A stretch of 64,000 nt of DNA, taken from Eledone cirrhosa (lineage: Eukaryota). Under the pieces are notes generated by a model. That model did no database searches and had not been told where the DNA came from. It worked only from the letters and a program-made list of their open reading frames with translations. The stretch is taken from positions 21,948,001 through 22,012,000 of the forward strand of contig OZ024765.1 in the NCBI GenBank assembly GCA_964016885.1, in the 5' to 3' direction. The number at the start of each line of letters is the position of its first letter. Positions within the stretch are counted from its first letter, which is position 1. Of the stretch, positions 4,290 through 54,382 are shown in pieces. A program made the translations under genes and the position numbers.

Positions 4290-5191
<902 letters not shown>

Positions 5192-17510: not shown

Positions 17511-17561
17511 ATGGCACCAACCCGTAGCCCAAGGTTGCTCTGCGTGGCAATCCTCTCCATC
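17511..17561 (+). CDS. Hc: Hemocyanin signal-peptide exon s1a (MAPTRSPRLLCVAILSI), plus gene
   Basis: aacATGG, 17 codons, GTAAGT donor at 17562 (phase 0). Confidence 0.82.
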
Positions 17562-17695: not shown

Positions 17696-17731
17696 ATGGG
17701 ACCAGCCCATAGCCTAATGTTGCTCTATATG
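17696..17731 (+). CDS. Hc: Candidate alternative first exon s1b (MGPAHSLMLLYM), plus gene
   Basis: accATGG, 12 codons, GTAAGC donor at 17732, in frame with s2. Confidence 0.45.
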
Positions 17732-17880: not shown

Positions 17881-17911
17881 ATCTCAATATTTGTACCAGT
17901 AATTACTTACG
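17881..17911 (+). CDS. Hc: Hemocyanin signal-peptide exon s2 ([11 protein letters not shown]), plus gene
   Basis: tttttctccccctcag acceptor; GTAAGT phase-1 donor at 17912; in frame with FU-a at 43756. Confidence 0.85.
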
Positions 17912-21150: not shown

Positions 21151-21248
21151 ATACTGAATCTCCATCATAAATACAAACTACGAATGTTGAGTGCTTTATC
21201 CTGCTTACTCCTGTTTTTACCAAAACAATCTCTTCGGAACATATATAC

Positions 21249-21351
<103 letters not shown>

Positions 21352-21359
21352 AATTAAAA

Positions 21360-21999
21360 ATAAGAGGGATCAGATGTTGTTTACTCGAGAGAAGGCTACA
21401 TTGGTATGGACACGTGATGCGCATGAAAGTCAATAGCTGTATAACAAAGTGCAGGGCAATAAAGATAGACGGTAGTCACGGAATAGGCAGACCTAGAAAA
21501 ACCTGGGACGAACTGATAAACTCCGACCTCACACACTTACACCTCTCCAAGACAATGTCACTGGACCGAGACCTTTGGCGGTACTCAGTAACAGAGAAGA
21601 CCCGCCTTACCTAAATACATAGTAAAACCTACTACAGCCAGTAGGCATCTCTAACAAAATACACCCCGTCCCACCACCCCATCCACACCACCCCCTTCTA
21701 TGTAAAGTTATGTTGGTGCCGCACCATCCAGGCCGAAACAAATGAGATCGTGTAGGTGTCACGACAAAAAAACACAGTCCACGCTGTAATGTGGCCATGT
21801 AGGCAACACGGTAAAAACCTCCCAGCCCCACACTGTAAATGTGGTTGGTGTAAGGAAGGGCATCCAACTGTAGAAAACCCGCCAGACAGTCCTATACGAG
21901 CAAGACAATTACTCTTGCCTCAAGTGGGATTACCCCCGTCCAAACCCATGCAAGCGTGGAACACGGACGTTAAACGTTGATGATGATGATGATGATGAT
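21360..21999 (+). mobile_element. Second RTE 3'-end copy, inverted relative to 19894-20538
   Basis: [25 protein letters not shown]; same 3'UTR; (GAT)n tail at ~21979-21999. Confidence 0.8.
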
Positions 22000-22377
22000 A
22001 AATTCACACCCCAATATATATATACATACATATATACACATATACATACATATATACATATATTCATACATATTTATATATGCATACATGCATACATACA
22101 TGCTCATACATGTATATATATATATATATATATACATCCACACATACAAATATGTGTGTGAGTGTGTGTGTCAAACAAAGAGAGTGTATGTGTGTGTGTA
22201 TGTGCGTGTGTATGTGTGCATATGTTTGAATGTGTATGTAAAAGAAAGAGAGTGTATTTGTATGTGTGTGAGTGTTAGTGTGTGTGAGAGAGAGTGTGAG
22301 TGAGTGTGTGTGCGTGTATGTGTGTCAGTGTGTGTGTTAAAGAGAGTGTATGTGTGTGTGTGTGTGTTTGAATGTGT

Positions 22378-25300
22378 ATGTCTGAGAGAGAGTGTCTATG
22401 TATGTGAGTGTCTGAGAGACTATGTATGTGTGTCTATGTATGTCTGAGAGAGAGTGTCTATGTATGTGAGTGTCTGAGAGACTATGTATGTGTGTCTATG
22501 TATGTTTGAGAGAGAGTGTCTATGTATGTGAGTGTCTGAGAGACTATGTATGTGTGTCTATGTATGTCTGAGAGTGTGTCTATGTATGTGAGTGTCTGAG
22601 AGACTGTGTATGTGTGTCTATGTATGTCTGAGAGAGAGTGTCTATGTATGTGAGTGTCTGAGAGACTGTGTATGTGTGTCTATGTATGTCTGAGAGTGTG
22701 TCTATGTATGTGAGTGTCTGAGAGACTGTGTATGTGTGTCTATGTATGTCTGAGAGTGTGTCTATGTATGTGAGTGTCTGAGAGACTGTGTATGTGTGTC
22801 TATGTATGTCTGAGAGTGTGTCTATGTATGTGAGTGTCTGAGAGACTATGTATGTGTGTCTATGTATGTCTGAGAGAGAGTGTCTATGTATGTGAGTGTC
22901 TGAGAGACTATGTATGTGTGTATGTATGTCTGAGAGAGAGTGTCTATGTATGTGAGTGTCTGAGAGACTGTGTATGTGTGTCTATGTATGTCTGAGAGAG
23001 TGTCTATGTATGTGAGTGTCTGAGAGACTGTGTATGTGTGTCTATGTATGTCTGAGAGAGTGTCTATGTATGTGAGTGTCTGAGAGACTGTGTATGTGTG
23101 TCTATGTATGTCTGAGAGAGTGTCTATGTATGTGAGTGTCTGAGAAACTGTGTATGTGTGTCTATGTATGTCTGAGAGAGTGTCTATGTATGTGAGTGTC
23201 TGAGAGACTGTGTATGTGTGTCTATGTATGTCTGAGAGAGTGTCTATGTATGTGAGTGTCTGAGAGACTATGTATGTGTGTCTATGTATGTCTTTAGAGA
23301 GTGTCTATGTATGTGAGTGTCTGAGAGACTGTGTATGTGTGTCTATGTATGTCTGAGAGAGTGTCTATGTATGTGAGTGTCTGAGAGACTATGTATGTGT
23401 GTCTATGTATGTCTGAGAGAGTGTCTATGTATGTGAGTGTCTGAGAAACTGTGTATGTGTGTCTATGTATGTCTGAGAGAGTGTCTATGTATGTGAGTGT
23501 CTGAGAGACTGTGTATGTGTGTCTATGTATGTCTGAGAGAGTGTCTATGTATGTGAGTGTCTGAGAAACTGTGTATGTGTGTCTATGTATGTCTGAGAGA
23601 GTGTCTATGTATGTGAGTGTCTGAGAGACTGTGTATGTGTGTCTATGTATGTCTGAGAGAGTGTCTATGTATGTGAGTGTCTGAGAGACTATGTATGTGT
23701 GTCTATGTATGTCTGAGAGAGAGTCTATGTATGTGTGTCTATGTATGTCTGAGAGAGAGTGTCTATGTATGTGAATGTCTGAGAGACTGTGTATGTGTGT
23801 CTATGTATGTCTGAGAGAGTGTCTATGTATGTGAGTGTCTGAGAGACTGTGTATGTGTGTCTATGTATGTCTGAGAGAGTGTCTATGTATGTGAGTGTCT
23901 GAGAGACTGTGTATGTGTGTCTATGTATGTCTGAGAGAGTGTCTATGTATGTGAGTGTCTGAGAGACTGTGTATGTGTGTCTATGTATGTCTGAGAGAGT
24001 GTCTATGTATGTGAGTGTCTGAGAGACTGTGTGTGTGTGTCTATGTATGTCTGAGAGAGAGTGTCTATGTATGTGAGTGTCTGAGAGACTGTGTATGTGT
24101 GTCTATGTATGTCTGAGAGAGTGTGTCTATGTATGTGAGTGTCTGAGAGACTATGTATGTGTGTCTATGTATGTCTTAGAGAGTGTCTATGTATGTGAGT
24201 GTCTGAGAGACTATGTATGTGTGTCTATGTATGTCTGAGAGAGTGTCTATGTATGTGAGTGTCTGACAGACTATGTATGTGTGTCTATGTATGTCTGAGA
24301 GAGTGTCTATGTATGTGAGTCTCTGAGAGACTGTGTATGTGTGTCTAAGTATGTCTGAGAGAGTGTCTATGTATGTGAATGTCTGAGAGACTATGTATGT
24401 GTGTCTATGTATGTCTGAGAGAGAGTGTCTATGTATGTGAGTGTCTGAGAGACTATGTATGTGTGTCTATGTATGTCTGAGAGAGAGTGTCTATGTATGT
24501 GAGTGTCTGAGAGACTATGTATGTGTGTCTATGTATGTCTGAGAGAGAGTGTCTATGTATGAGAGTGTCTGAGAGACTATGTATGTGTGTCTATGTATGT
24601 CTGAGAGAGAGTGTCTATGTATGTGAGTGTCTGAGAGACTATGTATGTGTGTCTATGTATGTCTGAGAGAATGTCTATGTATGTGAGTGTCTGAGAAACT
24701 ATGTATGTGTGTCTATGTATGTCTGAGAGAGTGTCTATGTATGTGAGTGTCTGAGAGACTGTGTATGTGTGTCTATGTATGTGAGTGTCTGAGAGACTGT
24801 GTATGTGTGTCTATGTATGTCTGAGAGAGTGTCTATGTATGTGAGTGTCTGAGAGACTGTGTATGTGTGTCTATGTATGTCTGATAGAGTATCTATGTAT
24901 GTGAGTGTCTGAGAGACTGTGTATGTGTGTCTATGTATGTCTGAGAGAGTGTCTATGTATGTGAGTGTCTGAGAGACTGTGTGTGTGTGTCTATGTATGT
25001 CTGAGAGAGAGTGTCTATGTATGTGAGTGTCTGAGAGACTGTGTATGTGTGTCTATGTATGTCTGAGAGAGTGTGTCTATGTATGTGAGTGTCTGAGAGA
25101 CTATGTATGTGTGTCTATGTATGTCTGAGAGAGTGTCTATGTATGTGAGTGTCTGAGAGACTATGTATGTGTGTCTATGTATGTCTGAGAGAGTGTCTAT
25201 GTATGTGAGTGTCTGACAGACTATGTATGTGTGTCTATGTATGTCTGAGAGAGTGTCTATGTATGTGAGTCTCTGAGAGACTGTGTATGTGTGTCTAAGT

Positions 25301-28300
25301 ATGTCTGAGAGAGTGTCTATGTATGTGAATGTCTGAGAGACTATGTATGTGTGTCTATTTATGTCTGAGAGAGAGTGTCTATGTATGTGAGTGTCTGAGA
25401 GACTATGTATGTGTGTCTATGTATGTCTGAGAGAGAGTGTCTATGTATGAGAGTGCCTGAGAGACTATGTATGTGTGTCTATGTATGTCTGAGAGAGTGT
25501 CTATGTATGTGAGTGTCTGAGAGACTATGTATGTGTGTCTATGTATGTCTGAGAGAGTGTCTATGTATGTGAGTGTCTGAGAGACTGTGTATGTGTGTCT
25601 ATGTATGTCTGAGAGAGTGTCTATGTATGTGAGTGTCTGAGAGACTATGTATGTGTGTCTATGTATGTCTGAGAGAGTGTCTATGTATGTCTGAGAGAGT
25701 GTCTATGTATGTGAGTGTCTGAGAGACTGTGTATGTGTGTCTATGTAGGTCTGAGAGAGTGTCTATGTATGTCTGAGAGAGTGTCTATGTATGTGAGTGT
25801 CTGAGAGACTGTGTATGTGTGTCTATGTATGTCTGACAGAGAGTGTATATGTATGTGAGTGTCTGAGAGACTGTGTATGTGTGTCTATGTACGTCTGAGA
25901 GAGAGTGTCTATGTATGTGAGTGTCTGAGAGACTGTGTATGTGTGTCTATGTATGTCTGAGAGAGTGTCTATGTATGTGAGTGTCTGAGAGACTGTGTAT
26001 GTGTGTCTATGTATGTCTGAGAGAGAGTGTATATGTATGTGAGTGTCTGAGAGACTGTGTATGTGTGTCTATGTATGTCTGAGAGAGAGTGTCTATGTAT
26101 GTGAGTGTCTGAGAGTCTATGTATGTGTGTCTATGTATGTCTGAGAGTGTGTCTATGTATGTGAGTGTCTGAGAGACTGTGTATGTGTGTCTATGTATGT
26201 CTGAGAGAGAGTCTATGTATGTGAGTGTCTGACAGACTATGTATGTGTGTCTATGTATGTCTGAGAGAGTGTCTATGTATGTGAGTCTCTGAGAGACTGT
26301 GTATGTGTGTCTATGTATGTCTGAGAGAGAGTGTCTATATATGTGAGTGTCTGAGAGACTATGTATGTGTGTCTATGTATGTCTGAGAGAGAGTGTCTAT
26401 GTATGTGAGTGTCTGAGAGACTATGTATGTGTGTCTATGTATGTCTGAGAGAGTGTCTATGTATGTGAGTGTCTGAGAGACTATGTATGTGTGTCTATGT
26501 ATGTCTGAGAGAGAGTGTCTATATATGTGAGTGTCTGAGAGACTATGTATGTGTGTCTATGTATGTCTGAGAGAGAGTGTCTATGTATGTGAGTGTCTGA
26601 GAGACTATGTATGTGTGTCTATGTATGTCTGAGAGAGTGTCTATGTATGTGAGTGTCTGAGAGACTATGTATGTGTGTCTATGTATGTCTGAGAGAGAGT
26701 GTCTATGTATGTGAGTGTCTGAGAGACTGTGTATGTGTGTCTATGTATGTCTGAGAGAGTGTGTCTATGTATGTGAGTGTCTGAGAGACTATGTATGTGT
26801 GTCTATGTATCTCTGAGAGAGTGTGTCTATGTATGTGAGTGTCTGAGAGACTGTGTATGTGTGTCTATGTATGTCTGAGAGAGTGTGTCTATGTATGTGA
26901 GTGTCTGAGAGACTATGTATGTGTGTCTATGTATGTCTGAGAGAGTGTGTCTATGTATGTGAGTGTCTGAGAGACTGTGTATGTGTGTCTATGTATGTCT
27001 GAGAGAGAGTGTCTATGTATGTGACTGTCTTAGAGACTATGTATGTGTGTCTATGTATGTGAGTGTCTAAGAAACTATGTATGTGTGTCTATGTATGTCT
27101 GAGAGAGAGTGTCTATGTATGTGAATGTCTGAGAGACTGTGTATGTGTGTCTATGTATGACTGAGAGAGAGTCTATGTATGTGTGTCTATGTATGTCTGA
27201 GAGAGTGTATATGTATGTGAGTGTCTGAGAGACTATGTATGTGTGTCTATGTATGTCTGAGAGAGAGTGTCTATGTATGTGAGTGTCTGAGAGTCTATGT
27301 ATGTGTGTCTATGTATGTCTGAGAGTGTGTCTATGTATGTGAGTGTCTGAGAGACTGTGTATGTGTGTCTATGTATGTCTGAGAGAGAGTCTATGTATGT
27401 GAGTGTCTGACAGACTATGTATGTGTGTCTATGTATGTCTGAGAGAGTGTCTATGTATGTGAGTCTCTGAGAGACTGTGTATGTGTGTCTATGTATGTCT
27501 GAGAGAGAGTGTCTATATATGTGAGTGTCTGAGAGACTATGTATGTGTGTCTATGTATGTCTGAGAGAGAGTGTCTATGTATGTGAGTGTCTGAGAGACT
27601 ATGTATGTGTGTCTATGTATGTCTGAGAGAGTGTCTATGTATGTGAGTGTCTGAGAGACTATGTATGTGTGTCTATGTATGTCTGAGAGAGAGTGTCTAT
27701 ATATGTGAGTGTCTGAGAGACTATGTATGTGTGTCTATGTATGTCTGAGAGAGAGTGTCTATGTATGTGAGTGTCTGAGAGACTATGTATGTGTGTCTAT
27801 GTATGTCTGAGAGAGTGTCTATGTATGTGAGTGTCTGAGAGACTATGTATGTGTGTCTATGTATGTCTGAGAGAGAGTGTCTATGTATGTGAGTGTCTGA
27901 GAGACTGTGTATGTGTGTCTATGTATGTCTGAGAGAGTGTGTCTATGTATGTGAGTGTCTGAGAGACTATGTATGTGTGTCTATGTATCTCTGAGAGAGT
28001 GTGTCTATGTATGTGAGTGTCTGAGAGACTGTGTATGTGTGTCTATGTATGTCTGAGAGAGTGTGTCTATGTATGTGAGTGTCTGAGAGACTATGTATGT
28101 GTGTCTATGTATGTCTGAGAGAGTGTGTCTATGTATGTGAGTGTCTGAGAGACTGTGTATGTGTGTCTATGTATGTCTGAGAGAGAGTGTCTATGTATGT
28201 GACTGTCTTAGAGACTATGTATGTGTGTCTATGTATGTGAGTGTCTAAGAAACTATGTATGTGTGTCTATGTATGTCTGAGAGAGAGTGTCTATGTATGT

Positions 28301-31300
28301 GAATGTCTGAGAGACTGTGTATGTGTGTCTATGTATGACTGAGAGAGAGTCTATGTATGTGTGTCTACGTATGTCTGAGAGAGAGTGTATATGTATGTGA
28401 GTGTCTGAGAGACTGTGTATGTGTGTCTATGTATGTCTGAGAGAGAGTGTCTATGTATGTGACTGTCTTAGAGACTATGTATGTGTGTCTATGTATGTGA
28501 GTGTCTAAGAAACTATGTATGTGTGTCTATGTATGTCTGAGAGAGTGTCTATGTATGTGAGTGTCTGAGAGACTGTGTATGTGTGTCTATGTATATTTGA
28601 GAGAGTGTCTATGTATGTGAGTGTCTGAGAGACTGTGTATGTGTGTCTATGTATGTCTGAGAGAGTGTCTATGTATGTGAGTGTCTGAGAAACTATGTAT
28701 GTGTGTCTATGTATGTCTGAGAGAGTGCCTATGTATGTGAGTGTCTGAGGGACTGTGTATGTGTGTCTATGTATGTCTGAGAGAGTGTCTATGTATGTGA
28801 GTGTCTGAGTAACTATGTATGTGTGTCTATGTATGTCTGAGAGAGTGTCTATGTATGTGAGTGTCTGAGAGACTGTGTATGTGTGTCTATGTATGTCTGA
28901 GAGAGTGTCTATGTATGTGAGTGTCTGAGAGACTGTGTATGTGTGTCTATGTATGTCTGAGAGAGTGTCTATGTATGTGAGTGTCTGAGAGACTGTGTAT
29001 GTGTGTCTATGTATGTCTGAGAGAGTGTCTATGTATGTGAGTGTCTGAGAGACTGTGTGTGTGTGTCTATGTATGTCTGAGAGAGAGTGTCTATGTATGT
29101 GAGTGTCTGAGAGACTGTGTATGTGTGTCTATGTATGTCTGAGAGAGTGTGTCTATGTATGTGAGTGTCTGAGAGACTATGTATGTGTGTCTATGTATGT
29201 CTGAGAGAGAGTGTCTATGTATGAGAGTGTCTGAGAGACTATGTATGTGTGTCTATGTATGTCTGAGAGAGTGTCTATGTATGTGAGTGTCTGAGGGACT
29301 GTGTATGTGTGTCTATGTATGTCTGAGAGAGTGTCTATGTATGTGAGTGTCTGAGAAACTATGTATGTGTGTCTATGTATGTCTGAGAGAGTGTCTATGT
29401 ATGTGAGTGTCTGAGAGACTGTGTATGTGTGTCTATGTATGTGAGTGTCTGAGAGACTGTGTATGTGTGTCTATGTATGTCTGAGAGAGTGTCTATGTAT
29501 GTGAGTGTCTGAGAGACTGTGTATGTGTGTCTATGTATGTCTGATAGAGTGTCTATGTATGTGAGTGTCTGAGAGACTGTGTATGTGTGTCTATGTATGT
29601 CTGAGAGAGTGTCTATGTATGTGAGTGTCTGAGAGACTGTGTGTGTGTGTCTATGTATGTCTGAGAGAGAGTGTCTATGTATGTGAGTGTCTGAGAGACT
29701 GTGTATGTGTGTCTATGTATGTCTGAGAGAGTGTGTCTATGTATGTGAGTGTCTGAGAGACTATGTATGTGTGTCTATGTATGTCTGAGAGAGTGTCTAT
29801 GTATGTGAGTGTCTGACAGACTATGTATGTGTGTCTATGTATGTCTGAGAGAGTGTCTATGTATGTGAGTCTCTGAGAGACTGTGTATGTGTGTCTAAGT
29901 ATGTCTGAGAGAGTGTCTATGTATGTGAATGTCTGAGAGACTATGTATGTGTGTCTATTTATGTCTGAGAGAGAGTGTCTATGTATGTGAGTGTCTGAGA
30001 GACTATGTATGTGTGTCTATGTATGTCTGAGAGAGAGTGTCTATGTATGAGAGTGCCTGAGAGACTATGTATGTGTGTCTATGTATGTCTGAGAGAGTGT
30101 CTATGTATGTGAGTGTCTGAGAGACTATGTATGTGTGTCTATGTATGTCTGAGAGAGTGTCTATGTATGTGAGTGTCTGAGAGACTGTGTATGTGTGTCT
30201 ATGTATGTCTGAGAGAGTGTCTATGTATGTGAGTGTCTGAGAGACTATGTATGTGTGTCTATGTATGTCTGAGAGAGTGTCTATGTATGTCTGAGAGAGT
30301 GTCTATGTATGTGAGTGTCTGAGAGACTGTGTATGTGTGTCTATGCAGGTCTGAGAGAGTGTCTATGTATGTCTGAGAGAGTGTCTATGTATGTGAGTGT
30401 CTGAGAGACTGTGTATGTGTGTCTATGTACGTCTGAGATAGAGTGTCTATGTATGTGAGTGTCTGAGAGACTGTGTATGTGTGTCTATGTATGTCTGAGA
30501 GAGTGTATATGTATGTGAGTGTCTGAGAGACTGTGTATGTGTGTCTATGTATGTCTGAGAGAGAGTGTATATGTATGTGAGTGTCTGAGAGACTGTGTAT
30601 GTGTGTCTATGTACGTCTGAGAGAGAGTGTCTATGTATATGAGTGTCTGAGACACTGTGTATGTGTGTCTATGTATGTCTGAGAGAGTGTCTATGTAGTG
30701 AGTGTCTGAGAGACTATGTATGTGTGTCTATGTATGTCTGAGAGAGAGTGTCTATGTATGTGAGTGTCTGAGAGTCTATGTATGTGTGTCTATGTATGTC
30801 TGAGAGTGTGTCTATGTATGTGAGTGTCTGAGAGACTGTGTATGTGTGTCTATGTATGTCTGAGAGAGAGTCTATGTATGTGAGTGTCTGACAGACTATG
30901 TATGTGTGTCTATGTATGTCTGAGAGAGAGTGTCTATGTATGTGAGTCTCTGAGAGACTGTGTATGTGTGTCTATGTATGTCTGAGAGAGAGTGTCTATA
31001 TATGTGAGTGTCTGAGAGACTATGTATGTGTGTCTATGTATGTCTGAGAGAGAGTGTCTATGTATGTGAGTGTCTGAGAGACTATGTATGTGTGTCTATG
31101 TATGTCTGAGAGAGTGTCTATGTATGTGAGTGTCTGAGAGACTATGTATGTGTGTCTATGTATGTCTGAGAGAGAGTGTCTATGTATGTGAGTGTCTGAG
31201 AGACTATGTATGTGTGTCTATGTATGTCTGAGAGAGTGTGTCTATGTATGTGAGTGTCTGAGAGACTATGTATGTGTGTCTATGTATGTCTGAGAGAGTG

Positions 31301-34300
31301 TGTCTATGTATGTGAGTGTCTGAGAGACTATGTATGTGTGTCTATGTATGTCTGAGAGAGTGTGTCTATGTATGTGAGTGTCTGAGAGACTATGTATGTG
31401 TGTCTATGTATGTCTGAGAGAGTGTGTCTATGTATGTGAGTGTCTGTGAGACTGTGTATGTGTGTTTATGTATGTCTGAGAGAGTGTGTCTATGTATGTG
31501 AGTGTCTGTGAGACTGTGTATGTGTGTCTATATATGTCTGAGAGAGTGTCTATGTATGTGAGTGTCTGAGAGACTATGTATGTGTGTCTATATATGTCTG
31601 AGAGAGTGTCTATGTATGTGAGTGTCTGAGAGAATATGTATGTGTGTCTATGTATGTCTGAGAGAGTGTATATTTATGTGAGTGTCTGAGAGACTATGTA
31701 TGTGTGTCTATGTATGTCTGAGAGCGAGTGTCTATGTATGTGAGTGTCTGAGAGACTATGTATGTGTGTCTATGTCTGAGAGAGAGTGTCTATGTATATG
31801 AGTGTCTGAGAGACTGTGTATGTGTGTCTATGTATGTCTGAGAGAGAGTGTCTATGTATGTGAGTGTCTGAGAGACTGTATATGTGTGTCTATGTATGTC
31901 TGAGAGAGTGTCTACGTATGTGTGTGACTGAGAGACTGTGTATGTGTGTCTATGTATGTCTGAGAGAGAGTGTCTATGTATGTGAGTGTCTTAGAGACTA
32001 TGTATGTGTGTCTATGTATGTCTGAGAGAGTGTCTATGTATGTGAGTGTCTGAGAGACTGTGTATGTGTGTCTATGTATGTCTGAGAGAGAGTGTCTATG
32101 TATGTGAGTGTCTGAGAAACTATGTATGTGTGTCTATGTATGTCTGAGAGAGTGTCTATGTATGTGAGTGTCTGAGAGACTGTGTATGTGTGTCTATGTA
32201 TGTTTGAGAGAGTGTCTATGTATGTGAGTGTCTGAGAGACTGTGTATGTGTGTCTATGTATGTCTGAGAGTGTGTCTATGTATGTGAGTGTCTGAGAGAC
32301 TGTGTATCTGTGTCTATGTATGTCTGAGAGAGTGTCTATGTATGTGAGTGTCTGAGAAACTATGTATGTGTGTCTATGTATGTCTGAGAGAGTGTCTATG
32401 TATGTGAGTGTCTGAGAGACTGTGTATATGTGTCTATGTATGTCTGAGAGAGTGTCTATGTATGTGAGTGTCTGAGAAACTATGTATGTGTGTCTATGTA
32501 TGTCTGAGAGAGTGTGTCTATGTATGTGAGTGTCTGAGAGACTATGTATGTGTGTCTATGTATGTCTGAGAGAGTGTCTATGTATGTGAGTGTCTGAGAG
32601 ACTATGTATGTGTGTCTATGTATGTCTGAGAGAGTGTCTATGTATGTGAGTGTCTGACAGACTATGTATGTGTGTCTATGTATGTCTGAGAGAGTGTCTA
32701 TGTATGTGAGTGTCTGAGAGACTGTGTATGTGTGTCTATGTATGTCTGAGAGAGTGTCTATGTATGTGAGTGTCTGAGAGACTGTGTATGTGTGTCTATG
32801 TATGTCTGAGAGAGAGTGTATATGTATGTGAGTGTCTGAGAGACTGTGTATGTGTGTCTATGTACGTCTGAGAGAGAGTGTCTATGTATGTGAGTGTCTG
32901 AGAGACTGTGTATGTGTGTCTATGTATGTCTGAGAGAGTGTCTATGTATGTGAGTGTCTGAGAGACTGTGTATGTGTGTCTATGTATGTCTGAGAGAGAG
33001 TGTATATGTATGTGAGTGTCTGAGAGACTGTGTATGTGTGTCTATCTACGTCTGAGAGAGAGTGTCTATGTATATGAGTGTCTGAGAGACTGTGTATGTG
33101 TGTCTATGTATGTCTGAGAGAGTGTCTATGTATGTGAGTGTCTGAGAGACTATGTATGTGTGTCTATGTATGTCTGAGAGAGAGTGTATATGTATGTGAG
33201 TGTCTGAGAGACTGTGTATGTGTGTCTATGTATGTCTGAGAGAGAGTGTCTATGTATGTGAGTGTCTGGGAGACTATGTATGTTTGTCTATGTATGTCTG
33301 AGAGAGAGTGTATATGTATGTGAGTGTCTGAGAGACTGTGTATGTGTGTCTATGTATGTCTGAGAGATAGTGTATATGTATGTGAGTGTCTGAGAGACTG
33401 TGTATGTGTGTCTATGTATTTCTGAGAGAGTGTCTATGTATGTGAGTGTCTGAGAGACTGTGTATGTGTGTCTATGTATGTCTGAGAGAGAGTGTATATG
33501 TATGTGAGTGTCTGAGAGACTGTGTATGTGTGTCTATCTACGTCTGAGAGAGAGTGTCTATGTATATGAGTGTCTGAGAGACTATGTATGTGTGTCTATG
33601 TATGTCTGAGAGAGAGTCTATGTATGTGTGTCTATGTATGTCTGAGAGAGTGTGTCTATGTATGTGAGTGTCTGAGAGACTGTGTATGTGTGTCTATGTA
33701 TGTCTGAGAGAGAGTGTATATGTATGTGAGTGTCTGAGAGACTGTGTATGTGTGTCTATGTATGTCTGAGAGAGAGTGTATATGTATGTGAGTGTCTGAG
33801 AGAATGTGTATGTGTTTCTATGTATGTCTGAGAGAGTGTCTATGTATGTGAGTGTCTGAGAGACTATGTATGTGTGTCTATGTATGTCTGAGAGAGAGTG
33901 TCTATGTATGTGAGTGTCTGAGAGTCTATGTATGTGTGTCTATGTATGTCTGAGAGTGTGTCTATGTATGTGAGTGTCTGAGAGACTGTGTATGTGTGTC
34001 TATGTATGTCTGAGAGAGAGTCTATGTATGTGAGTGTCTGACAGACTATGTATGTGTGTCTATGTATGTCTGAGAGAGTGTGTCTATGCATGTGAGTGTC
34101 TGAGAGACTATGTATGTGTGTCTATGTATGTCTGAGAGAGTGTGTCTATGTATGTGAGTGTCTGAGAGACTGTGTATGTGTGTCTATGTATGTCTGAGAG
34201 AGAGTGTCTATATATGTGAGTGTCTGAGAGACTATGTATGTGTGTCTATATATGTCTGAGAGAGTGTCTATGTATGTGAGTGTCTGAGAGACTATGTATG

Positions 34301-37300
34301 TGTGTCTATGTATGTCTGAGAGAGTGTATATGTATGTGAGTGTCTGAGAGACTATGTATGTGTGTCTATGTATGTCTGAGAGCGAGTGTCTATGTATGTG
34401 AGTGTCTGAGAGACTATGTATGTGTGTCTATGTCTGAGAGAGAGTGTCTATGTATATGAGTGTCTGAGAGACTGTGTATGTGTGTCTATGTATGTCTGAG
34501 AGAGAGTGTCTATGTATGTGAGTGTCTGAGAGACTGTGTATGTGTGTCTATGTATGTCTGAGAGAGTGTCTACGTATGTGTGTGTCTGAGAGACTGTGTA
34601 TGTGTGTCTATGTATGTCTGAGATAGTGTCTATGTATGTGAGTGTCTGAGAGACTGTGTATGTGTGTCTATGTATGTCTGAGAGAGTGTCTATGTATGTG
34701 AGTGTCTGAGAGACTGTGTATGTGTGTCTATGTATGTCTGAGAGAGAGTGTCTATGTATGTGAGTGTCTGAGAGACTGTGTATGTGTGTCTATGTATGTC
34801 TGAGAGAGAGTGTCTATGTATGTGAGTGTCTGAGAGACTGTGTATGTGTGTCTATGTATGTCTGAGAGAGTGTCTACGTATGTGTGTGTCTGAGAGACTG
34901 TGTATGTGTGTCTATGTATGTCTGAGAGAGTGTCTATGTATGTGAGTGTCTGAGAGACTGTGTATGTGTGTCTATGTATGTCTGACAGAGTGTCTATGTA
35001 TCAGAGTGTCTGAGAGACTATGTATGTGTGTCTATGTATGTCTGAGAGAGAGTCTATGTATGTGAGTGTCTGAGAGACTGTGTATGTGTGACTATGTATG
35101 TCTGAGAGAGTGTCTATGTATGTGAGTGTCTGAGAGACTGTGTATGTGTGTCTATGTATGTCTGAGAGAGAGTGTATATGTATGTGAGTGTCTGAGAGAC
35201 TATGTATGTGTGTCTATGTATGTCTGAGAGAGAGTGTCTATGTATGAGAGTGTCTGAGAGACTGTGTATGTGTGTCTATGTATGTCTGAGAGAGAGTGTC
35301 TATGTATGTGAGTGTCTGAGAGACTGTGTATGTGTGTCTATGTATGTCTGAGAGAGTGTCTATGTATGAGAGTGTCTGAGAGACTGTGTATGTGTGTCTA
35401 TGTATGTCTGAGAGAGTGTGTCTATGTATGTGAGTGTCTGAGAGACTGTGTATGTGTGTCTATGTATGTCTGAGAGAGTGTCTATGTATGTGAGTGTCTG
35501 AGAGACTGTGTATGTGTGTCTATGTATGTCTGAGAGAGAGTGTCTATGTATGTGAGTGTCTGAGAGACTATGTATGTGTGTCTATGTATGTCTGAGAGAG
35601 AGTGTCTATGTATGTGAGTGTCTGAGAGACTATCTATGTGTGTCTATGTATGTCTGAGAGAGTGTCTATGTATGTGAGCGTCTGAGAGACTATGTATGTG
35701 TGTCTATGTATGTCTGTGAGAGAGTCTATGTATGTGAGTGTCTGAGAGACTATGTATGTGTGTCTATGTATGTCTGAGAGAGTGTGTCTATGTATGTGAG
35801 TGTCTGAGAGACTATGTATGTGTGTCTATGTATGTCTGAGAGAGAGTGTCTATGTATGAGAGTGTCTGAGAGACTGTGTATGTGTGTCTATGTATGTCTG
35901 AGAGAGAGTGTCTATGTATGTGAGTGTCTGAGAGACTGTGTATGTGTGTCTATGTATGTCTGAGAGAGTGTCTATGTATGAGAGTGTCTGAGAGACTGTG
36001 TATGTGTGTCTATGTATGTTTGAGAGAGTGTATATTTATGTGAGTGTCTGAGAGACTATGTATGTGTGTCTATGTATGTCTGAGAGCGAGTGTCTATGTA
36101 TGTGAGTGTCTGAGAGACTATGTATGTGTGTCTATGTCTGAGAGAGAGTGTCTATGTATATGAGTGTCTGAGAGACTGTGTATGTGTGTCTATGTATGTC
36201 TGAGAGAGAGTGTCTATGTATGTGAGTGTCTGAGAGACTGTATATGTGTGTCTATGTATGTCTGAGAGAGTGTCTACGTATGTGTGTGACTGAGAGACTG
36301 TGTATGTGTGTCTATGTATGTCTGAGAGAGAGTGTCTATGTATGTGAGTGTCTTAGAGACTATGTATGTGTGTCTATGTATGTCTGAGAGAGTGTCTATG
36401 TATGTGAGTGTCTGAGAGACTGTGTATGTGTGTCTATGTATGTCTGAGAGAGAGTGTCTATGTATGTGAGTGTCTGAGAGACTGTGTATGTGTGTCTATG
36501 TATGTCTGAGAGAGAGTGTCTATGTATGTGAGTGTCTGAGAAACTATGTATGTGTGTCTATGTATGTCTGAGAGAGTGTCTATGTATGTGAGTGTCTGAG
36601 AGACTGTGTATGTGTGTCTATGTATGTTTGAGAGAGTGTCTATGTATGTGAGTGTCTGAGAGACTGTGTATGTGTGTCTATGTATGTCTGAGAGTGTGTC
36701 TATGTATGTGAGTGTCTGAGAGACTGTGTATCTGTGTCTATGTATGTCTGAGAGAGTGTCTATGTATGTGAGTGTCTGAGAAACTATGTATGTGTGTCTA
36801 TGTATGTCTGAGAGAGTGTCTATGTATGTGAGTGTCTGAGAGACTGTGTATATGTGTCTATGTATGTCTGAGAGAGTGTCTATGTATGTGAGTGTCTGAG
36901 AAACTATGTATGTGTGTCTATGTATGTCTGAGAGAGTGTGTCTATGTATGTGAGTGTCTGAGAGACTATGTATGTGTGTCTATGTATGTCTGAGAGAGTG
37001 TCTATGTATGTGAGTGTCTGAGAGACTATGTATGTGTGTCTATGTATGTCTGAGAGAGTGTCTATGTATGTGAGTGTCTGACAGACTATGTATGTGTGTC
37101 TATGTATGTCTGAGAGAGTGTCTATGTATGTGAGTGTCTGAGAGACTGTGTATGTGTGTCTATGTATGTCTGAGAGAGTGTCTATGTATGTGAGTGTCTG
37201 AGAGACTGTGTATGTGTGTCTATGTATGTCTGAGAGAGAGTGTATATGTATGTGAGTGTCTGAGAGACTGTGTATGTGTGTCTATGTACGTCTGAGAGAG

Positions 37301-40300
37301 AGTGTCTATGTATGTGAGTGTCTGAGAGACTGTGTATGTGTGTCTATGTATGTCTGAGAGAGTGTCTATGTATGTGAGTGTCTGAGAGACTGTGTATGTG
37401 TGTCTATGTATGTCTGAGAGAGAGTGTATATGTATGTGAGTGTCTGAGAGACTGTGTATGTGTGTCTATCTACGTCTGAGAGAGAGTGTCTATGTATATG
37501 AGTGTCTGAGAGACTGTGTATGTGTGTCTATGTATGTCTGAGAGAGTGTCTATGTATGTGAGTGTCTGAGAGACTATGTATGTGTGTCTATGTATGTCTG
37601 AGAGAGAGTGTATATGTATGTGAGTGTCTGAGAGACTGTGTATGTGTGTCTATGTATGTCTGAGAGAGAGTGTATATGTATGTGAGTGTCTGAGAGACTG
37701 TGTATGTGTGTCTATGTATGTCTGAGAGAGAGTGTCTATGTATGTGAGTGTCTGGGAGACTATGTATGTTTGTCTATGTATGTCTGAGAGAGAGTGTATA
37801 TGTATGTGAGTGTCTGAGAGACTGTGTATGTGTGTCTATGTATGTCTGAGAGAGAGTGTATATGTATGTGAGTGTCTGAGAGACTGTGTATGTGTGTCTA
37901 TGTATTTCTGAGAGAGTGTCTATGTATGTGAGTGTCTGAGAGACTGTGTATGTGTGTCTATGTATGTCTGAGAGAGAGTGTATATGTATGTGAGTGTCTG
38001 AGAGACTGTGTATGTGTGTCTATCTACGTCTGAGAGAGAGTGTCTATGTATATGAGTGTCTGAGAGACTATGTATGTGTGTCTATGTATGTCTGAGAGAG
38101 AGTCTATGTATGTGTGTCTATGTATGTCTGAGAGAGTGTGTCTATGTATGTGAGTGTCTGAGAGACTGTGTATGTGTGTCTATGTATGTCTGAGAGAGAG
38201 TGTATATGTATGTGAGTGTCTGAGAGACTGTGTATGTGTGTCTATGTATGTCTGAGAGAGAGTGTATATGTATGTGAGTGTCTGAGAGAATGTGTATGTG
38301 TTTCTATGTATGTCTGAGAGAGTGTCTATGTATGTGAGTGTCTGAGAGACTATGTATGTGTGTCTATGTATGTCTGAGAGAGAGTGTCTATGTATGTGAG
38401 TGTCTGAGAGTCTATGTATGTGTGTCTATGTATGTCTGAGAGTGTGTCTATGTATGTGAGTGTCTGAGAGACTGTGTATGTGTGTCTATGTATGTCTGAG
38501 AGTGTGTCTATGTATGTGAGTGTCTGAGAGACTGTGTATCTGTGTCTATGTATGTCTGAGAGAGTGTCTATGTATGTGAGTGTCTGAGAAACTATGTATG
38601 TGTGTCTATGTATGTCTGAGAGAGTGTCTATGTATGTGAGTGTCTGAGAGACTGTGTATATGTGTCTATGTATGTCTGAGAGAGTGTCTATGTATGTGAG
38701 TGTCTGAGAAACTATGTATGTGTGTCTATGTATGTCTGAGAGAGTGTGTCTATGTATGTGAGTGTCTGAGAGACTATGTATGTGTGTCTATGTATGTCTG
38801 AGAGAGTGTCTATGTATGTGAGTGTCTGAGAGACTATGTATGTGTGTCTATGTATGTCTGAGAGAGTGTCTATGTATGTGAGTGTCTGACAGACTATGTA
38901 TGTGTGTCTATGTATGTCTGAGAGAGTGTCTATGTATGTGAGTGTCTGAGAGACTGTGTATGTGTGTCTATGTATGTCTGAGAGAGTGTCTATGTATGTG
39001 AGTGTCTGAGAGACTGTGTATGTGTGTCTATGTATGTCTGAGAGAGTGTCTACGTATGTGTGTGTCTGAGAGACTGTGTATGTGTGTCTATGTATGTCTG
39101 AGATAGTGTCTATGTATGTGAGTGTCTGAGAGACTGTGTATGTGTGTCTATGTATGTCTGAGAGAGTGTCTATGTATGTGAGTGTCTGAGAGACTGTGTA
39201 TGTGTGTCTATGTATGTCTGAGAGAGAGTGTCTATGTATGTGAGTGTCTGAGAGACTGTGTATGTGTGTCTATGTATGTCTGAGAGAGAGTGTCTATGTA
39301 TGTGAGTGTCTGAGAGACTGTGTATGTGTGTCTATGTATGTCTGAGAGAGTGTCTACGTATGTGTGTGTCTGAGAGACTGTGTATGTGTGTCTATGTATG
39401 TCTGAGAGAGTGTCTATGTATGTGAGTGTCTGAGAGACTGTGTATGTGTGTCTATGTATGTCTGACAGAGTGTCTATGTATCAGAGTGTCTGAGAGACTA
39501 TGTATGTGTGTCTATGTATGTCTGAGAGAGAGTCTATGTATGTGAGTGTCTGAGAGACTGTGTATGTGTGACTATGTATGTCTGAGAGAGTGTCTATGTA
39601 TGTGAGTGTCTGAGAGACTGTGTATGTGTGTCTATGTATGTCTGAGAGAGAGTGTCTATGTATGTGAGTGTCTGAGAGACTATGTATGTGTGTCTATGTA
39701 TGTCTGAGAGAGAGTGTCTATGTATGAGAGTGTCTGAGAGACTGTGTATGTGTGTCTATGTATGTCTGAGAGAGAGTGTCTATGTATGTGAGTGTCTGAA
39801 AGACTGTGTATGTGTGTCTATGTATGTCTGAGAAAGTGTCTATGTATGAGAGTGTCTGAGAGACTGTGTATGTGTGTCTATGTATGTCTGAGAGAGTGTG
39901 TCTATGTATGTGAGTGTCTGAGAGACTGTGTATGTGTGTCTATGTATGTCTGAGAGAGTGTCTATGTATGTGAGTGTCTGAGAGACTGTGTATGTGTGTC
40001 TATGTATGTCTGAGAGAGAGTGTCTATGTATGTGAGTGTCTGAGAGACTATGTATGTGTGTCTATGTATGTCTGAGAGAGAGTGTCTATGTATGTGAGTG
40101 TCTGAGAGACTATCTATGTGTGTCTATGTATGTCTGAGAGAGTGTCTATGTATGTGAGCGTCTGAGAGACTATGTATGTGTGTCTATGTATGTCTGTGAG
40201 AGAGTCTATGTATGTGAGTGTCTGAGAGACTATGTATGTGTGTCTATGTATGTCTGAGAGAGTGTGTCTATGTATGTGAGTGTCTGAGAGACTATGTATG

Positions 40301-43300
40301 TGTGTCTATGTATGTCTGAGAGAGAGTGTCTATGTATGAGAGTGTCTGAGAGACTGTGTATGTGTGTCTATGTATGTCTGAGAGAGAGTGTCTATGTATG
40401 TGAGTGTCTGAGAGACTGTGTATGTGTGTCTATGTATGTCTGAGAGAGTGTCTATGTATGAGAGTGTCTGAGAGACTGTGTATGTGTGTCTATGTATGTC
40501 TGAGAGAGTGTGTCTATGTATGTGAGTGTCTGAGAGACTGTGTATGTGTGTCTATGTATGTCTGAGAGAGTGTGTCTATGTATGTGAGTGTCTGAGAGAC
40601 TATGTATGTGTGTCTATGTATGTCTGAGAGAGTGTCTATGTATGTGAGTGTCTGAGAGACTGTGTATGTGTGTCTATGTATGTCTGAGAGAGTGTCTATG
40701 TATGTGAGTGTCTGTGAGACTGTGTATGTGTGTCTATGTATGTCTGAGAGAGTGTCTATGTATGTGAGTGTCTGAGAGACTGTGTATGTGTGTCTATGTA
40801 TGTCTGAGAGAGTGTCTATGTATGTGAGTGTCTGAGAGACTGTGTATGTGTGTCTATGTCTGAGAGAGTGTCTATGTACGTGAGTGTCTGAGAGACTATG
40901 TATGTGTGTCTATGTATGTCTGAGAGAGAGTGTCTATGTATGTGAGTGTCTGAGAGACTATGTATGTGTGTCTATGTATGTCTGAGAGAGAGTGTCTATG
41001 TATGTGAGTGTCTGAGAGACTATGTATGTGTGTCTATGTATGTCTGAGAGAGAGTGTCTATGTATGTGAGTGTCTGAGAGACTGTGTATGTGTGTCTATG
41101 TATGTCTGAGAGAGAGTCTATGTATGTGTGTCTATGTATGTCTGAGAGAGTGTCTATGTACGTGAGTGTCTGAGAGACTATGTATGTGTGTCTATGTATG
41201 TCTGAGAGAGAGTGTCTATGTATGTGAGTGTCTGAGAGACTGTGTATGTGTGTCTATGTATGTCTGAGAGAGAGTGTCTATGTATGTGAGTGTCTGAGAG
41301 ACTATGTATGTGTGTCTATGTATGTCTGAGTCAGAGTGTCTATGTATGTGAGTGTCTGAGAGACTATCTATGTGTGTCTATGTATGTCTGAGAGAGTGTC
41401 TATGTATGTGAGTGTCTGAGAGACTGTGTATGTGTGTCTATGTATGTCTGAGAGAGAGTGTCTATGTATGTGAGTGTCTGAGAGACTATGTATGTGTGTC
41501 TATGTATGTCTGAGAGAGAGTGTCTATGTATGTGAGTGTCTGAGAGACTATGTATGTGTGTCTATGTATGTCTGAGAGAGTGTGTCTATGTATGTGAGTG
41601 TCTGAGAAACTATGTATGTCTGAGAGAGTGTGTCTATGTATGTGAGTGTCTGAGAGACTATGTATGTGTGTCTATGTATGTCTGAGAGAGAGTGTCTATG
41701 TATGAGAGTGTCTGAGAGACTGTGTATGTGTGTCTATGTATGTCTGAGAGAGTGTCTATGTATGAGAGTGTCTGAGAGACTGTGTATGTGTGTCTATGTA
41801 TGTCTGAGAGAGTGTGTCTATGTATGTGAGTGTCTGAGAGACTGTGTATGTGTGTCTATGTATGTCTGAGAGAGAGTGTCTATGTATGTTAGTGTCTGAG
41901 AGACTATGTATGTGTGTCTATGTATGTCTGAGAGAGTGTCTATGTATGTGAGTGTCTGAGAGACTGTGTATGTGTGTCTATGTATGTCTGAGAGAGTGTC
42001 TATGTATGAGAGTGTCCAAGAGACTATGTATGTGTGTCTATGTATGTCTGAGAGAGAGTCTATGTATGTGAGTGTCTGAGAGACTGTGTATGTGTGTCTA
42101 TGTATGTCTGAGAGAGAGTGTCTATGTATGTGAGTGTCTGAGAGACTGTGTATGTGTGTCTATGTATGTCTGAGAGAGTGTCTACGTATGTGTGTGTCTG
42201 AGAGACTATGTATGTGTGTCTATGTATGTCTGAGAGAGAGTCTATGTATGTGAGTGTCTGAGAGACTGTGTATGTGTGTCTATGTATGTGAGTGTCTGAG
42301 AGACTGTGTATGTGTGTCTATGTCTGAGAGAGTGTCTATGTACGTGAGTGTCTGAGAGACTATGTATGTGTGTCTATGTATGTCTGAGAGAGAGTGTCTA
42401 TGTATGTGAGTGTCTGAGAGACTATGTATGTGTGTCTATGTATGTCTGAGAGAGTGTCTATGTATGTGAGTGTCTGAGAGACTATGTATGTGTATCTATG
42501 TATGTCTGAGAGAGTGTCTATGTATGTGAGTGTCTGAGAGACTATGTATGTGTGTCTATGTATGTCTGAGAGAGTGTCTATGTATGTGAGTGTCTGAGAG
42601 ACTGTGTATGTGTGTCTATGTATGTCTGAGAGAGTGTGTCTATGTATGTGAGTGTCTGAGAGACTATGTATGTGTGTCTATGTATGTCTGAGAGAGTGTC
42701 TATGTATGTGAGTGTCTGAGAGACTGTGTATGTGTGTCTATGTATGTCTGAGAGAGTGTCTATGTATGTGAGTGTCTGAGAGACTGTGTATGTGTGTCTA
42801 TGTCTGAGAGAGTGTCTATGTACGTGAGTGTCTGAGAGACTATGTATGTGTGTCTATGTATGTCTGAGAGAGAGTGTCTATGTATGTGAGTGTCTGAGAG
42901 ACTATGTATGTGTGTCTATGTATGTCTGAGAGAGTGTCTATGTATGTGAGTGTCTGAGAGACTATGTATGTGTGTCTATGTATGTCTGAGAGAGAGTGTC
43001 TATGTATGTGAGTGTCTGTGAGACTATGTATGTGTGTCTATGTATGTCTAAGAGAGTGTCTATGTATGTGAGTGTCTGAGAGACTGTGTATGTGTGTCTA
43101 TGTATGTCTGAGAGAATGTGTCTATGTATGTGAGTGTCTGAGAGACTATGTATGTGTGTCTATGTATGTGAGTGTCTGAGAGACTGTGTATGTGTGTCTA
43201 TGTATGTCTGAGAGAGTGTCTATGTATGTGAGTGTCTGAGAGACTGTGTATGTGTGTCTATGTATGTCTGAGAGAGTGTCTATGTATGAGAGTGTCTGAG

Positions 43301-43654
43301 AGACTATGTATGTGTGTCTATGTATGTCTGAGAGAGAGTCTATATATGTGAGTGTCTGAGAGACTATGTATGTGTGTCTATGTATGTCTGAGAGAGAGTG
43401 TCTATGTATGTGAGTGTCTGAGAGACTGTGTATGTGTGTCTATGTATGTCTGAGAGAGAGTCTATGTATGTGAGTGTCTGAGAGACTATGTATGTGTGTC
43501 TATGTATGTCTGAGAGAGTGTGTATATGTATGTGAGTGTCTGAGAGACTATGTATGTGTGTCTATGTATGTTTGAGAGAGAGTGTATATGTATGTGAGTG
43601 TCTGAGAGACTATGTATGTGTGTCTATGTATGTCTGAGAGAGTGTCTATGTATG
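22378..43654. repeat. 21.3-kb satellite of 60/62-bp units (~350 units) inside the s2/FU-a intron
   Basis: Unit tgtctatgtatgtgagtgtctgagagact(a/g)tgtatgtgtgtctatgtatgtctgagagag(ag). Confidence 0.98.
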
Positions 43655-43755
43655 TTTATCTTCCCATCCCAGTAAAATATGTAATATCATTAACTATTAT
43701 TTTCCCTTTACCCTCATCTTATTCTTTGCTTTTTCTTCTTTTTCTCCTTCTTCAG

Positions 43756-44988
43756 GTAAATTTGTGCGCAAAAATGTCGATAGCTTGACCGAGGCTGAGA
43801 TAATCAGCCTACAATTGGCCTTACATTCCATGCAATCTGACCACGGTCCAACTGGTTTCCAGGCTATTTCAGCCTATCATGGAGAACCTGCTGACTGTAA
43901 AGCTGCCGATGGTAGTCCAGTGGTATGTTGTCTCCATGGTATGCCTACGTTTCCTTTATGGCACAGGTTGTACGTGGTACAATTTGAACAGGTTATGGCA
44001 AGTCATGGATCGACTCATGGTGTACCCTACTGGGATTGGACACAGGCGATATCTGAACTACCCTCCTTAGTTCAACATCCACTCTTTATCGATCCCAGCG
44101 GTAAGAAAGCAAAGAAAAATGTATTTTATTCTGGTGCCATTGAATTTGAGAACAAAGTCACTGCCAGAGCAATTGATAACCAACTTTTTGATGCCGCCCA
44201 CGGAAAGAAGAACAGCTTATTGGAGAAGATGTTGATGGCTTTTGAACAGGAAGACTATTGTCGGTTTGAAGTCCAGTTTGAGGTAGCACACAACCCAGTC
44301 CACTTCTTAGTTGGGGGTCGATACCCTTATTCTATGTCTAGTCTAGACTATACCTCATACGACCCTCTCTTCTTTTTACACCACTCCAACGTTGAGCGTT
44401 TGTTTAGTATATGGCAAGCTCTTCAGAAACACAGAGGCCATGATGAGAAGATTCACTGCGGTTTAAACTTACTTCACACTCCTATGGAACCTTTCGGACG
44501 AGATTCTAACCCAATTGAATTAACAAAGAAAAACGCTAAAGCAGCCGACATTTTCACTAGCGACCATTTAGAATATAATTACGACGATCTCACTTTAAAT
44601 GGAATGTCTATTTCTGAATTAGACAGCTTATTAAAGGAACGCCAGTCACACCCGAGAGCCTTCGCTAACTTCCGTTTGGGTGGTATCAAGACATCAGCTA
44701 ATGTTCACATCATGGTGTGTATCCCAAGCAAAGATTCAAGAAAGAGCGACGACTGCCATAATGATGCTGGAGAATTCTTCATCCTCGGTGGTAAAAGAGA
44801 GATGCCATGGAACTTTGGTTATCCTTATCTTTATGATATCAGCGATACAGTCAAGTCTTTAGGATTGGAATTAGATGGAGACTATTATCTGAAAGCCGAA
44901 GTGACAGCTATCAATGGAAGTCATCTTCCTGAGGAAGTTATTCCAAAACCAATTGTTACCTACATCCCAGAAGTTGGACATCACGACC
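43756..44988 (+). CDS. Hc: Hemocyanin FU-a exon, plus gene
   Basis: ttcttcag acceptor, CuA and CuB His motifs, phase-1 donor C|GTAAGT at 44989; matches the Octopus FU-a pattern HGEPADCKA.DGS.VVCCLHGMPTFPLWHR. Confidence 0.97.
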
Positions 44989-45039
44989 GTAAGTACCTCC
45001 TTTCTCTCAGACATTTATCTAGAACTAAACAAAATACAA

Positions 45040-46277
45040 AATGTTATGTGAGATATTATGTGAGGTAAAGACTTTACTGTGAAAATACAATAGTATATAT
45101 AGAGTAATGTAAATGTTATGTGAGATATTATGTGAGGTAAAGCCTTTACTGTGAAAATACAATAGTATATATAGAGTAATGTAAATGTTATGTGAGATAT
45201 TATGTGAGGTAAAGCCTTTACTGTGAAAATACAATAGTAAATATAGAGTAATGTAAATGTTATGTGAGATATTATGTGAGGTAAAGCCTTTACTGTGAAA
45301 ATACAATAGTATATATATAGAGTAATGTAAAGGTTATGTGAGATATTATGTGAGGTAAAGCCTTTACTGTGAAAATACAATAGTATATATAGAGTAATGT
45401 AAATGTTATGTGAGATATTATGTGAGGTAAAGCCTTTACTGTGAAAATACAATAGTATATTTATAGAGTAATGTAAATGTTATGTGAGATATTATGTGAG
45501 GTAAAGCCTTTACTGTGAAAATAAAATAGTATATATATAGAGTAATGTAAATGTTATGTGAGATATTATGTGAGGTAAAGCCTTTACTGTGAAAATACAA
45601 TAGTATATATAGAGTAATGTAAATGTTATGTGAGATATTATGTGAGGTGAAGACTTTACTGTGAAAATACAATAGTATATATAGAGTAATGTAAATGTTA
45701 TGTGAGATATTATGTGAGGTAAAGCCTTTACTGTGAAAATACAATAGTATATATAGAGTAATGTAAATGTTATGTGAGATATTATGTGAGGTAAAGCCTT
45801 TACTGTGAAAATACAATAGTATATATAGAGTAATGTAAATGTTATGTGAGATATTATGTGAGGTAAAGCCTTTACTGTGAAAATACAATAGTAAATATAG
45901 AGTAATGTAAATGTTATGTGAGATATTATGTGAGGTAAAGCCTTTACTGTGAAAATACAATAGTATATATATAGAGTAATGTAAATGTTATGTGAGATAT
46001 TATGTGAGGTGAAGACTTTACTGTGAAAATACAATAGTATATATAGAGTAATGTAAATGTTATGTGAGATATTATGTGAGGTGAAGACTTTACTGTGAAA
46101 ATACAATAGTATATATAGAGTAATGTAAATGTTATGTGAGATATTATGTGAGGTAAAGCCTTTACTGTGAAAATACAATAGTATATATAGAGTAATGTAA
46201 ATGTTATGTGAGATATTATGTGAGATAAAGCCTTTACTGTGAAAATACAATAGTATATATAGAGTAATGTAAATGTT
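45040..46277 (+). repeat. 72-bp minisatellite (~17 units), FU-a/FU-b linker intron
   Basis: Same unit as 94-549 and 63871-64000. Confidence 0.97.
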
Positions 46278-46365
46278 AAAGGGTTAGACAATAGTTTTAA
46301 TTCAAGTGAATGTTTTCTTGTTTTAGAATCAACTTCTATTTAAACCTTCTCTTCTATAATTTCAG

Positions 46366-47076: not shown

Positions 47077-47078
<2 letters not shown>

Positions 47079-47279
47079 GATAGAGTAAGACACGCTTCGC
47101 ATCGGCTCCGCTATTCCATCGGGATTTACCCTTACTATTGTAAGTACCGGATAAATTTCTTAGTGCAACACATTTGGAACACTAACCCCTGTTATTTAGG
47201 GAAACATTTTTGCATTTACCCCCTTTTTAGGGGGTAAAATAAATATCTATTTTTGCCGAAAAATTTCTTTCTTGGCAGC

Positions 47280-49116: not shown

Positions 49117-49121
49117 ATCAA

Positions 49122-54138: not shown

Positions 54139-54155
54139 TATCTATCTGTCTATCT

Positions 54156-54326: not shown

Positions 54327-54382
54327 GTATCTATCTATCTATCTAACTGTCTGTCTGTCTGACTCTCTCTCTCTCTCTCCCC

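Follow-up and report, generated by a model that had tools for sequence, protein, structure and literature searches.

Concerted evolution of inverted paralogs, as in the Hsp70 pairs of Drosophila and the palindromes of the human Y chromosome, leaves near-identical coding sequences, patchy divergence of introns and flanks, and homology that ends at insertions. The inverted pair of hemocyanin genes on C26 of Eledone cirrhosa differs from these systems in that the conversion boundary would lie within a satellite of very great length in one of the two genes, conversion being inferred here from one genome. Octopod hemocyanin genes have been described from Enteroctopus dofleini (OdH), Octopus vulgaris (OvHA and OvHR) and O. 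bimaculoides (ObHR); in the parts of these reports drawn upon here, they comprise FUs a to g with phase-1 linker introns and with introns lying inside the signal peptide (phase 0), FU-b (2), FU-e (0) and FU-f (0), and independent recent whole-gene duplications are known (PMC3945787, PMC7931591). The C26 pair shares the seven-FU layout and the intron phases, as in E. dofleini (PMC3945787), and is unlike OdH, OvHA, OvHR and ObHR, as described in the same parts, in being an inverted pair 0.26% apart in coding sequence with private arrays of 21-25 kb in two introns of one copy. In the available text of PMC3945787 and PMC7931591, gene conversion has 0 occurrences in both and intronic satellites are not mentioned. 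That a minisatellite can arise out of a complex microsatellite is already described for BvMSat07 of sugar beet, whose monomer is made up of degenerate microsatellite modules and for which tandem amplification by slippage and recombination was proposed in the sections considered (PMC2820488); the mechanism classes, namely slippage, unequal exchange and conversion, are all known. The hemocyanin-intron arrays resemble BvMSat07, as presented there, in having a microsatellite-built monomer amplified in tandem, whereas BvMSat07 is dispersed and its precursor was inferred from the monomer, and here a single locus offers the unexpanded counterpart in the paralogous intron, twice (PMC2820488). Simple satellite also makes up most of the intron of protein-coding genes in Drosophila kl-3 and kl-5, where, according to the portion of the source used, satellite-filled gigantic introns reach megabases and dedicated RNA-binding proteins are needed (PMC6508621). 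The two array-bearing introns of the plus copy on C26 likewise consist mostly of satellite, but at 25.8 and about 25.9 kb they fall far below that class of hundreds of kb to Mb. A literature search, with subscription papers and supplements outside its scope, found no report on this hemocyanin locus, and within the same scope none joining octopus hemocyanin genes with gene conversion, cephalopod hemocyanin with intron satellite, or intron-satellite expansion in paralogs with a microsatellite origin. What is new here is that the contrast between the copies recurs in the last intron, making the paired case doubly replicated. How a satellite was born is generally deduced from nothing but its monomer, whereas here two private arrays can be compared with unexpanded paralogous counterparts, and the ordered unit variants record block duplications. 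Since the mechanisms are known and multi-kb arrays are common in the region, the value of the locus is that of a test case and not of a new system.

The window, the whole stretch of 64,000 nucleotides that was analysed, holds two intact seven-unit hemocyanin genes arranged head-to-head, the plus copy and the minus copy (Table 1). A search of the genome with its own FU-a gave two matches at 100% on C26, in opposite orientation. FU-a of both copies lies above the cut-off for the tyrosinase (PF00264) and haemocyanin beta-sandwich (PF14830) domains of Pfam and its best PDB matches are molluscan hemocyanins, the other FUs being identified by their search match to FU-a only. In each copy 13 exons with canonical splice sites join into a single open frame of 2,921 aa containing FUs a to g, without FU-h and without a duplicated FU-d, and the exon lengths give phase 1 for the linker introns and phases 0, 2, 0 and 0 for the internal ones. 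Judged by domains, layout and intron phases, the C26 pair are molluscan (octopod-type) hemocyanin genes. The coding sequences differ at 23 of 8,766 bases (0.26%; 15 codons synonymous, 7 nonsynonymous), and the proteins at 7 of 2,921 residues, so that an earlier note on this DNA overstated the likeness in calling the genes protein-identical; only the FU-a protein is so. The diagnostic SNPs of that note are real, the one at 44081/1540 being synonymous and signal codon 5 reading Arg in one copy and His in the other. Those 23 differences make paralog-specific counts feasible from ordinary RNA-seq. Promoter, splice sites and reading frame are intact in both copies, yet the plus gene spans 77,199 bp and the minus gene 21,547 bp, the plus gene being 3.6 times longer. 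In both genes the first signal-peptide exon also has a second copy, ATG-led and of phase 0, between s1 and s3 (plus: 17696-17731), which is a possible alternative first exon.

Table 1. Positions of gene parts, repeats and anchors at the paired hemocyanin locus (window numbering except where C26 is given).
Feature	Position	Strand	Remarks
Signal-peptide exons, plus gene	17511-17561, 17881-17911	+	spliced gene model
Array-bearing intron s3/FU-a, plus gene	17912-43755	+	gene model
FU-a exon, plus gene	43756-44988	+	later exons to 63721 in window
Last exon, plus gene	window-equivalent 94705	+	beyond window
Signal-peptide exons, minus gene	5259-5659	-	gene model
Intron before FU-a, minus gene	1866-5258	-	gene model
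FU-a exon, minus gene	633-1865	-	1 synonymous difference from plus copy
Tandem array, 60/62-bp unit, intron before FU-a, plus gene	22375-43655	+	~347 units
Stub, ~1.5 units, minus gene	about 1962-2060	-	1966-2056 letter-identical to plus 43565-43655
19-mer anchor, plus intron	21998-22016	+	5' of mosaic
19-mer anchor, minus intron	2792-2810	-	followed by homologous mosaic, split by high-copy element
Degenerate TA/TGTA/TG/GA microsatellite mosaic 5' of array, with decayed proto-units	22013-22374	+	from sequence
High-copy dispersed element, ~580 bp, minus intron only, between anchor and stub	2137-2720		from depth and loose ends; 96% copy at 6888-7321
Dispersed repeat, plus intron only	18120-19500		nearest other copies 96% identical (40 scored of 5,139 candidates)
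Second array, 28/30-bp unit, last intron of plus gene	C26:22017148-22042542; window-equivalent 69148-94542		~858 units, ~25 kb, 200-N gap
Smaller intronic array, 20-bp unit	55577-56386		40.5 copies plus vs 4.8 minus
Smaller intronic array, 65-bp unit	59958-60670		11 copies plus vs 6 minus
Smaller intronic array, 81-bp unit	62096-63362		15 copies plus vs a mosaic in minus
36-bp array, spacer between the two divergent promoters	8790-14931 (6.1 kb)	+	117 forward, 0 reverse marker matches

The intron between s3 and FU-a measures 25,844 bp in the plus copy and 3,393 bp in the minus copy, close to the 25.8 and 3.4 kb of the earlier note, and most of the plus intron is taken up by the tandem array. 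The array has 347 unit junctions with a mean period of 61.3 bp (334 by a stricter marker), where about 350 units had been reported, and it ends, as reported, 100 bp 5' of the FU-a exon. The ~90 bp of repeat, or about 1.5 units, ascribed to the minus gene are present as the stub. From sequence comparison on both sides, array and stub occupy a homologous site. On the far side this follows from the 19-mer anchor, which occurs exactly twice in the 3.0-Gb genome, once per intron, and on the near side from the identity of 190 of the 191 bases counted backwards from the FU-a acceptor, the single difference being at 43712; the right flank is hence the same in both copies, as had been claimed. The last 91 of those 191 shared bases lie within the repeat. 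The left flank had been called similar, and its junction motif is as described, short and of low complexity, with the unique 19-mer adding a firmer anchor. Beyond the anchor a related TA/TGTA mosaic, about 80% alike, is found in both introns, and the remaining intron interior carries different insertions in the two copies. A mid-intron island of 80-90% identity (21160-21250 vs 3652-3730) was considered as an anchor and dropped, since it belongs to a dispersed repeat with further copies that match equally well or better (40 scored of 1,087 candidates).

The consensus of the 60/62-bp unit is made of TGTA, GA and GT microsatellite modules, which bears out the mosaic composition proposed for it, and the units stand head-to-tail in one orientation. 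A 35-mer derived from the unit matched the genome 223 times forward and once in reverse (control 0), and the window alone gave the same counts; the unit is confined to these two introns, in a test of exact 35-mer matches (224 of 224 in the window) that diverged relatives elsewhere would escape. When the array was parsed, 333 segments fell into 99 unit types with an ordered and nested arrangement, and nested block duplications of 1.2-2.7 kb were found at lags of 1.2 and 4.4-4.7 kb. The duplicated block pairs differ by 1, 20, 29 and 0 substitutions over 1.2, 2.7, 1.7 and 1.7 kb, respectively, and 328 array units are on average 1.2 substitutions from the commonest unit. With so few substitutions between blocks (0-29 per 1.2-2.7 kb) and between units, the array is to be regarded as young. 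The stub contains a unit combining TTTGAG and GTATAT that is rare, occurring once in the whole plus array, and among 591 candidate unit ends in the array the second-best exact match of the stub end is 69 bp long.

The contrast at the last intron is of the same kind. This intron measures 25,878 bp in the plus copy, a figure that includes the 200-N gap so that the true size may differ, and 920 bp in the minus copy; its flanks, including the terminal exon and the 3' region, align in both. Marked 28/30-bp units number 858 in the plus copy and 6 in the minus copy, where the mosaic occupies 0.55 kb. This repeat is private as well, its 217 forward matches all lying in the plus array and a single reverse match in the minus mosaic. 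The minus mosaic has its own variant, in 3 copies against 0 in the plus array, and is therefore not merely a trimmed plus array. A general bias towards longer repeats in the plus gene was considered and set aside, since 6 of 7 minisatellite sites, or 8 of 10 when microsatellites are included, is not significant. Merged arrays of at least 1 kb (n=18) make up 42% of the 204 kb examined, and the two largest are both plus-gene intron arrays. A multi-kb array as such is ordinary in this region, and the paired contrast is the useful part.

Other repeats of the pair were also recorded. A 72-bp repeat occupies two intron positions that correspond between the paralogs (45039-46278, 93-551, 63872-64000 and one further stretch), in differing copy number (17 vs 6 and about 6 vs 9); it was discarded as another private array, being a genome-wide family with 17,200 exact 34-mer matches. 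At 47078-52740 the FU-b intron of the plus gene alone carries a LINE, apparently full-length and sense-oriented, that has inserted into a TATC microsatellite, with a 1,166-codon stop-free frame bearing endonuclease and RT domains and an upstream frame split in two. A 3' fragment of a related element (53132-54373) is common to both genes, at 96%.

Divergence between the copies is uneven. Seven non-tandem intron blocks, picked by leaving out tandem-repeat blocks, differ by 0.25-4.1% (chi-square 42, 6 df, P 1.5e-7), and synonymous divergence is 0.8%, whereas a plus-only insertion stands 4% from its nearest copies (40 scored). The block around FU-a, at 99.6%, ends exactly at the stub. From these patterns the pair is likely an older duplicate homogenised in patches by gene conversion; selection or local mutation rate could be an alternative source of the patchy divergence. 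The letters of the stub need not be ancestral, because the block to which the stub belongs was likely homogenised across the two copies, and the identity of stub and array end gives no direction, because conversion either way would make them identical. Hence, from the before-and-after snapshot proposed in the earlier note, the paired contrast at the same site stands and recurs in the last intron, whereas the stub, lying in a likely homogenised block, is not a frozen "before" state.

The reading that best accommodates these observations, with a probability of about 0.62, is that of an inverted gene-sized hemocyanin duplicate, likely homogenised by conversion, in which a compound microsatellite grew into a 21-kb array in the plus copy only. 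Slippage would first have built the 60/62-bp unit from runs of TGTA, GA and GT, and unequal exchange would afterwards have duplicated stretches of about 1 to 5 kb. Tracts of conversion would start in the FU-a exon, cross the acceptor flank and end together with the homology, which would explain a stub that matches the array end beside a far flank with a likeness of only about 80%. Of the 347 array units, 6 contain the TTTGAG variant of the stub, two of them at most three units from either end (post-hoc P about 0.004), and its GTAT state is met again in the decayed mosaic 5' of the array and in 25 array units. The placement of TTTGAG at the edges and of GTAT in the mosaic would accord with an old seed state that persisted at the array margins. 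Against growth, the first unit of the stub matches the penultimate unit of the plus array and not the initial one, exactly the trace expected of a deletion or of conversion from plus to minus, and the plus copy has about 200 bp more of the old mosaic than the minus copy, the intron of which may have lost sequence. Three hemocyanin genes on C1 lack such a repeat over the roughly 2.6 kb that precede FU-a and, at only about 70% exon identity to the C26 pair, are too distant to polarise the change. The contig of a relative (X4) covers FU-a (573-1866) with 86 other letters and ends at the acceptor, so that the direction is read without a close outgroup. The earlier note had left expansion and collapse side by side; of the two, expansion of a microsatellite mosaic in the plus copy is the more probable, a direction that the stub alone cannot give.

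A collapse, clearly the less probable course though the foremost rival, would start from an ancestral long array that the minus copy lost through recombination between the first and the penultimate unit, or whose acceptor end was overwritten from the plus copy. It would account for a stub identical to the array's final 91 bp, among them the variant unit occurring once, for a start junction motif common to both introns, and for the part of the old mosaic that is absent from the minus copy. The same course, however, requires an array to have been lost a second time, independently and almost completely, in the last intron, whose minus mosaic contains variants of its own, and it sits poorly with the youth of the array units and with the position of the seed-like variant at the array edges.

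Whether growth of the arrays had consequences is a separate matter. Under the growth reading the prediction for the array is near-neutrality, with a longer transcript and an unchanged splice-site context. Polymerase advances at 1-2 kb per minute, so that an extra 55 kb would mean a delay of tens of minutes, and steady-state output need not change. It is doubtful, in contrast, that the arrays are selected or effective regulators by which the plus copy became slower, silenced or differently spliced. Such an effect would suit the concentration of the two largest arrays of the 204 kb in introns of the same copy, the 3.6 times longer plus gene and its additional full-length LINE in sense, and the 302 donor-like GTRAGT motifs that the first array has on its sense strand, along with 860 branch-like YTRAY motifs of the last-intron array; however, such motifs are a product of the low-complexity unit, as much as 42% of the region consists of arrays of 1 kb or more, and promoter, splice sites and frame are intact in both copies. 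On the sense strand of the 21-kb array there are no AATAAA or ATTAAA poly(A) signals and no pyrimidine tract followed by AG, and CpG occurs 26 times. The branch region and the acceptor before FU-a are common to both copies. Because the array is without poly(A) signals or pyrimidine-tract acceptors and has few CpG, and because the 191 bases on the acceptor side are shared, large effects on transcription, splicing or silencing are not predicted. The regulatory satellite introns known from the parts of the source considered are, moreover, megabases long (PMC6508621). It is improbable that the locus acts as a satellite nursery, in which introns unpaired from their partner let two unrelated mosaics grow beyond 20 kb each in one copy and the arrays would now set the outputs of the genes apart; if true, this would be a case of expression divergence by intron satellite, between near-same promoters and proteins, with a built-in control gene. 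In either event the pair is a natural control for the effect of about 47 kb of intronic satellite on the output of a highly expressed gene.

The earlier note had named assembly collapse or over-expansion as what would refute its contrast. In the read-contig run X1 a depth of 10.9 was recorded for the FU-a contig and one of 456 for the contig carrying the 62-bp variant; with the exon taken as two loci, their ratio corresponds to about 84 copies of the 62-bp variant word against 63-81 in the assembly, an estimate from one contig in one run, probably of the assembly's own sample, in which depth does not equate to copy number. If a second array were hidden, about twice that depth would be expected, and one array of about the assembled size is therefore favoured. 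Two RAD runs from other individuals, filed under the same species label, barely covered the site, with an exon depth of 0-2. A collapsed minus array, an inflated plus array, or the side-by-side placing of two haplotypes from a single gene is very unlikely, since such an artefact, though it would suit the exact runs of 1,226 and 1,132 bp, the 1.65-kb pair with 0 substitutions, the 0.26% between coding sequences, the 200-N gap in the last-intron array and the lack of any read or contig across either site in X1 and two RAD runs, is at odds with a window free of N, 99 unit types in ordered and nested patterns, a read-derived word depth that matches one array and not two, homology that stops at the gene ends (the next 43 kb in minus and 48 kb in plus share dispersed repeats only), two upstream spacer halves without match to each other, a 36-bp spacer array that keeps one strand, and insertions proper to each intron.

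Further hemocyanin genes were noted elsewhere in the genome. The three on C1 (173.74-173.91 Mb) are compact and in tandem, with an FU-a at 71% to that of the C26 pair; their FU-g runs directly into the stop codon, whereas the C26 pair has the last intron and then a 5-base coding exon. Near the start of C27 lies a strongly diverged hemocyanin-like gene, at 33-41% to FU-a, in which the FUs are apparently shortened, some copper-site motifs, as judged by eye, are altered, and one exon end is duplicated.
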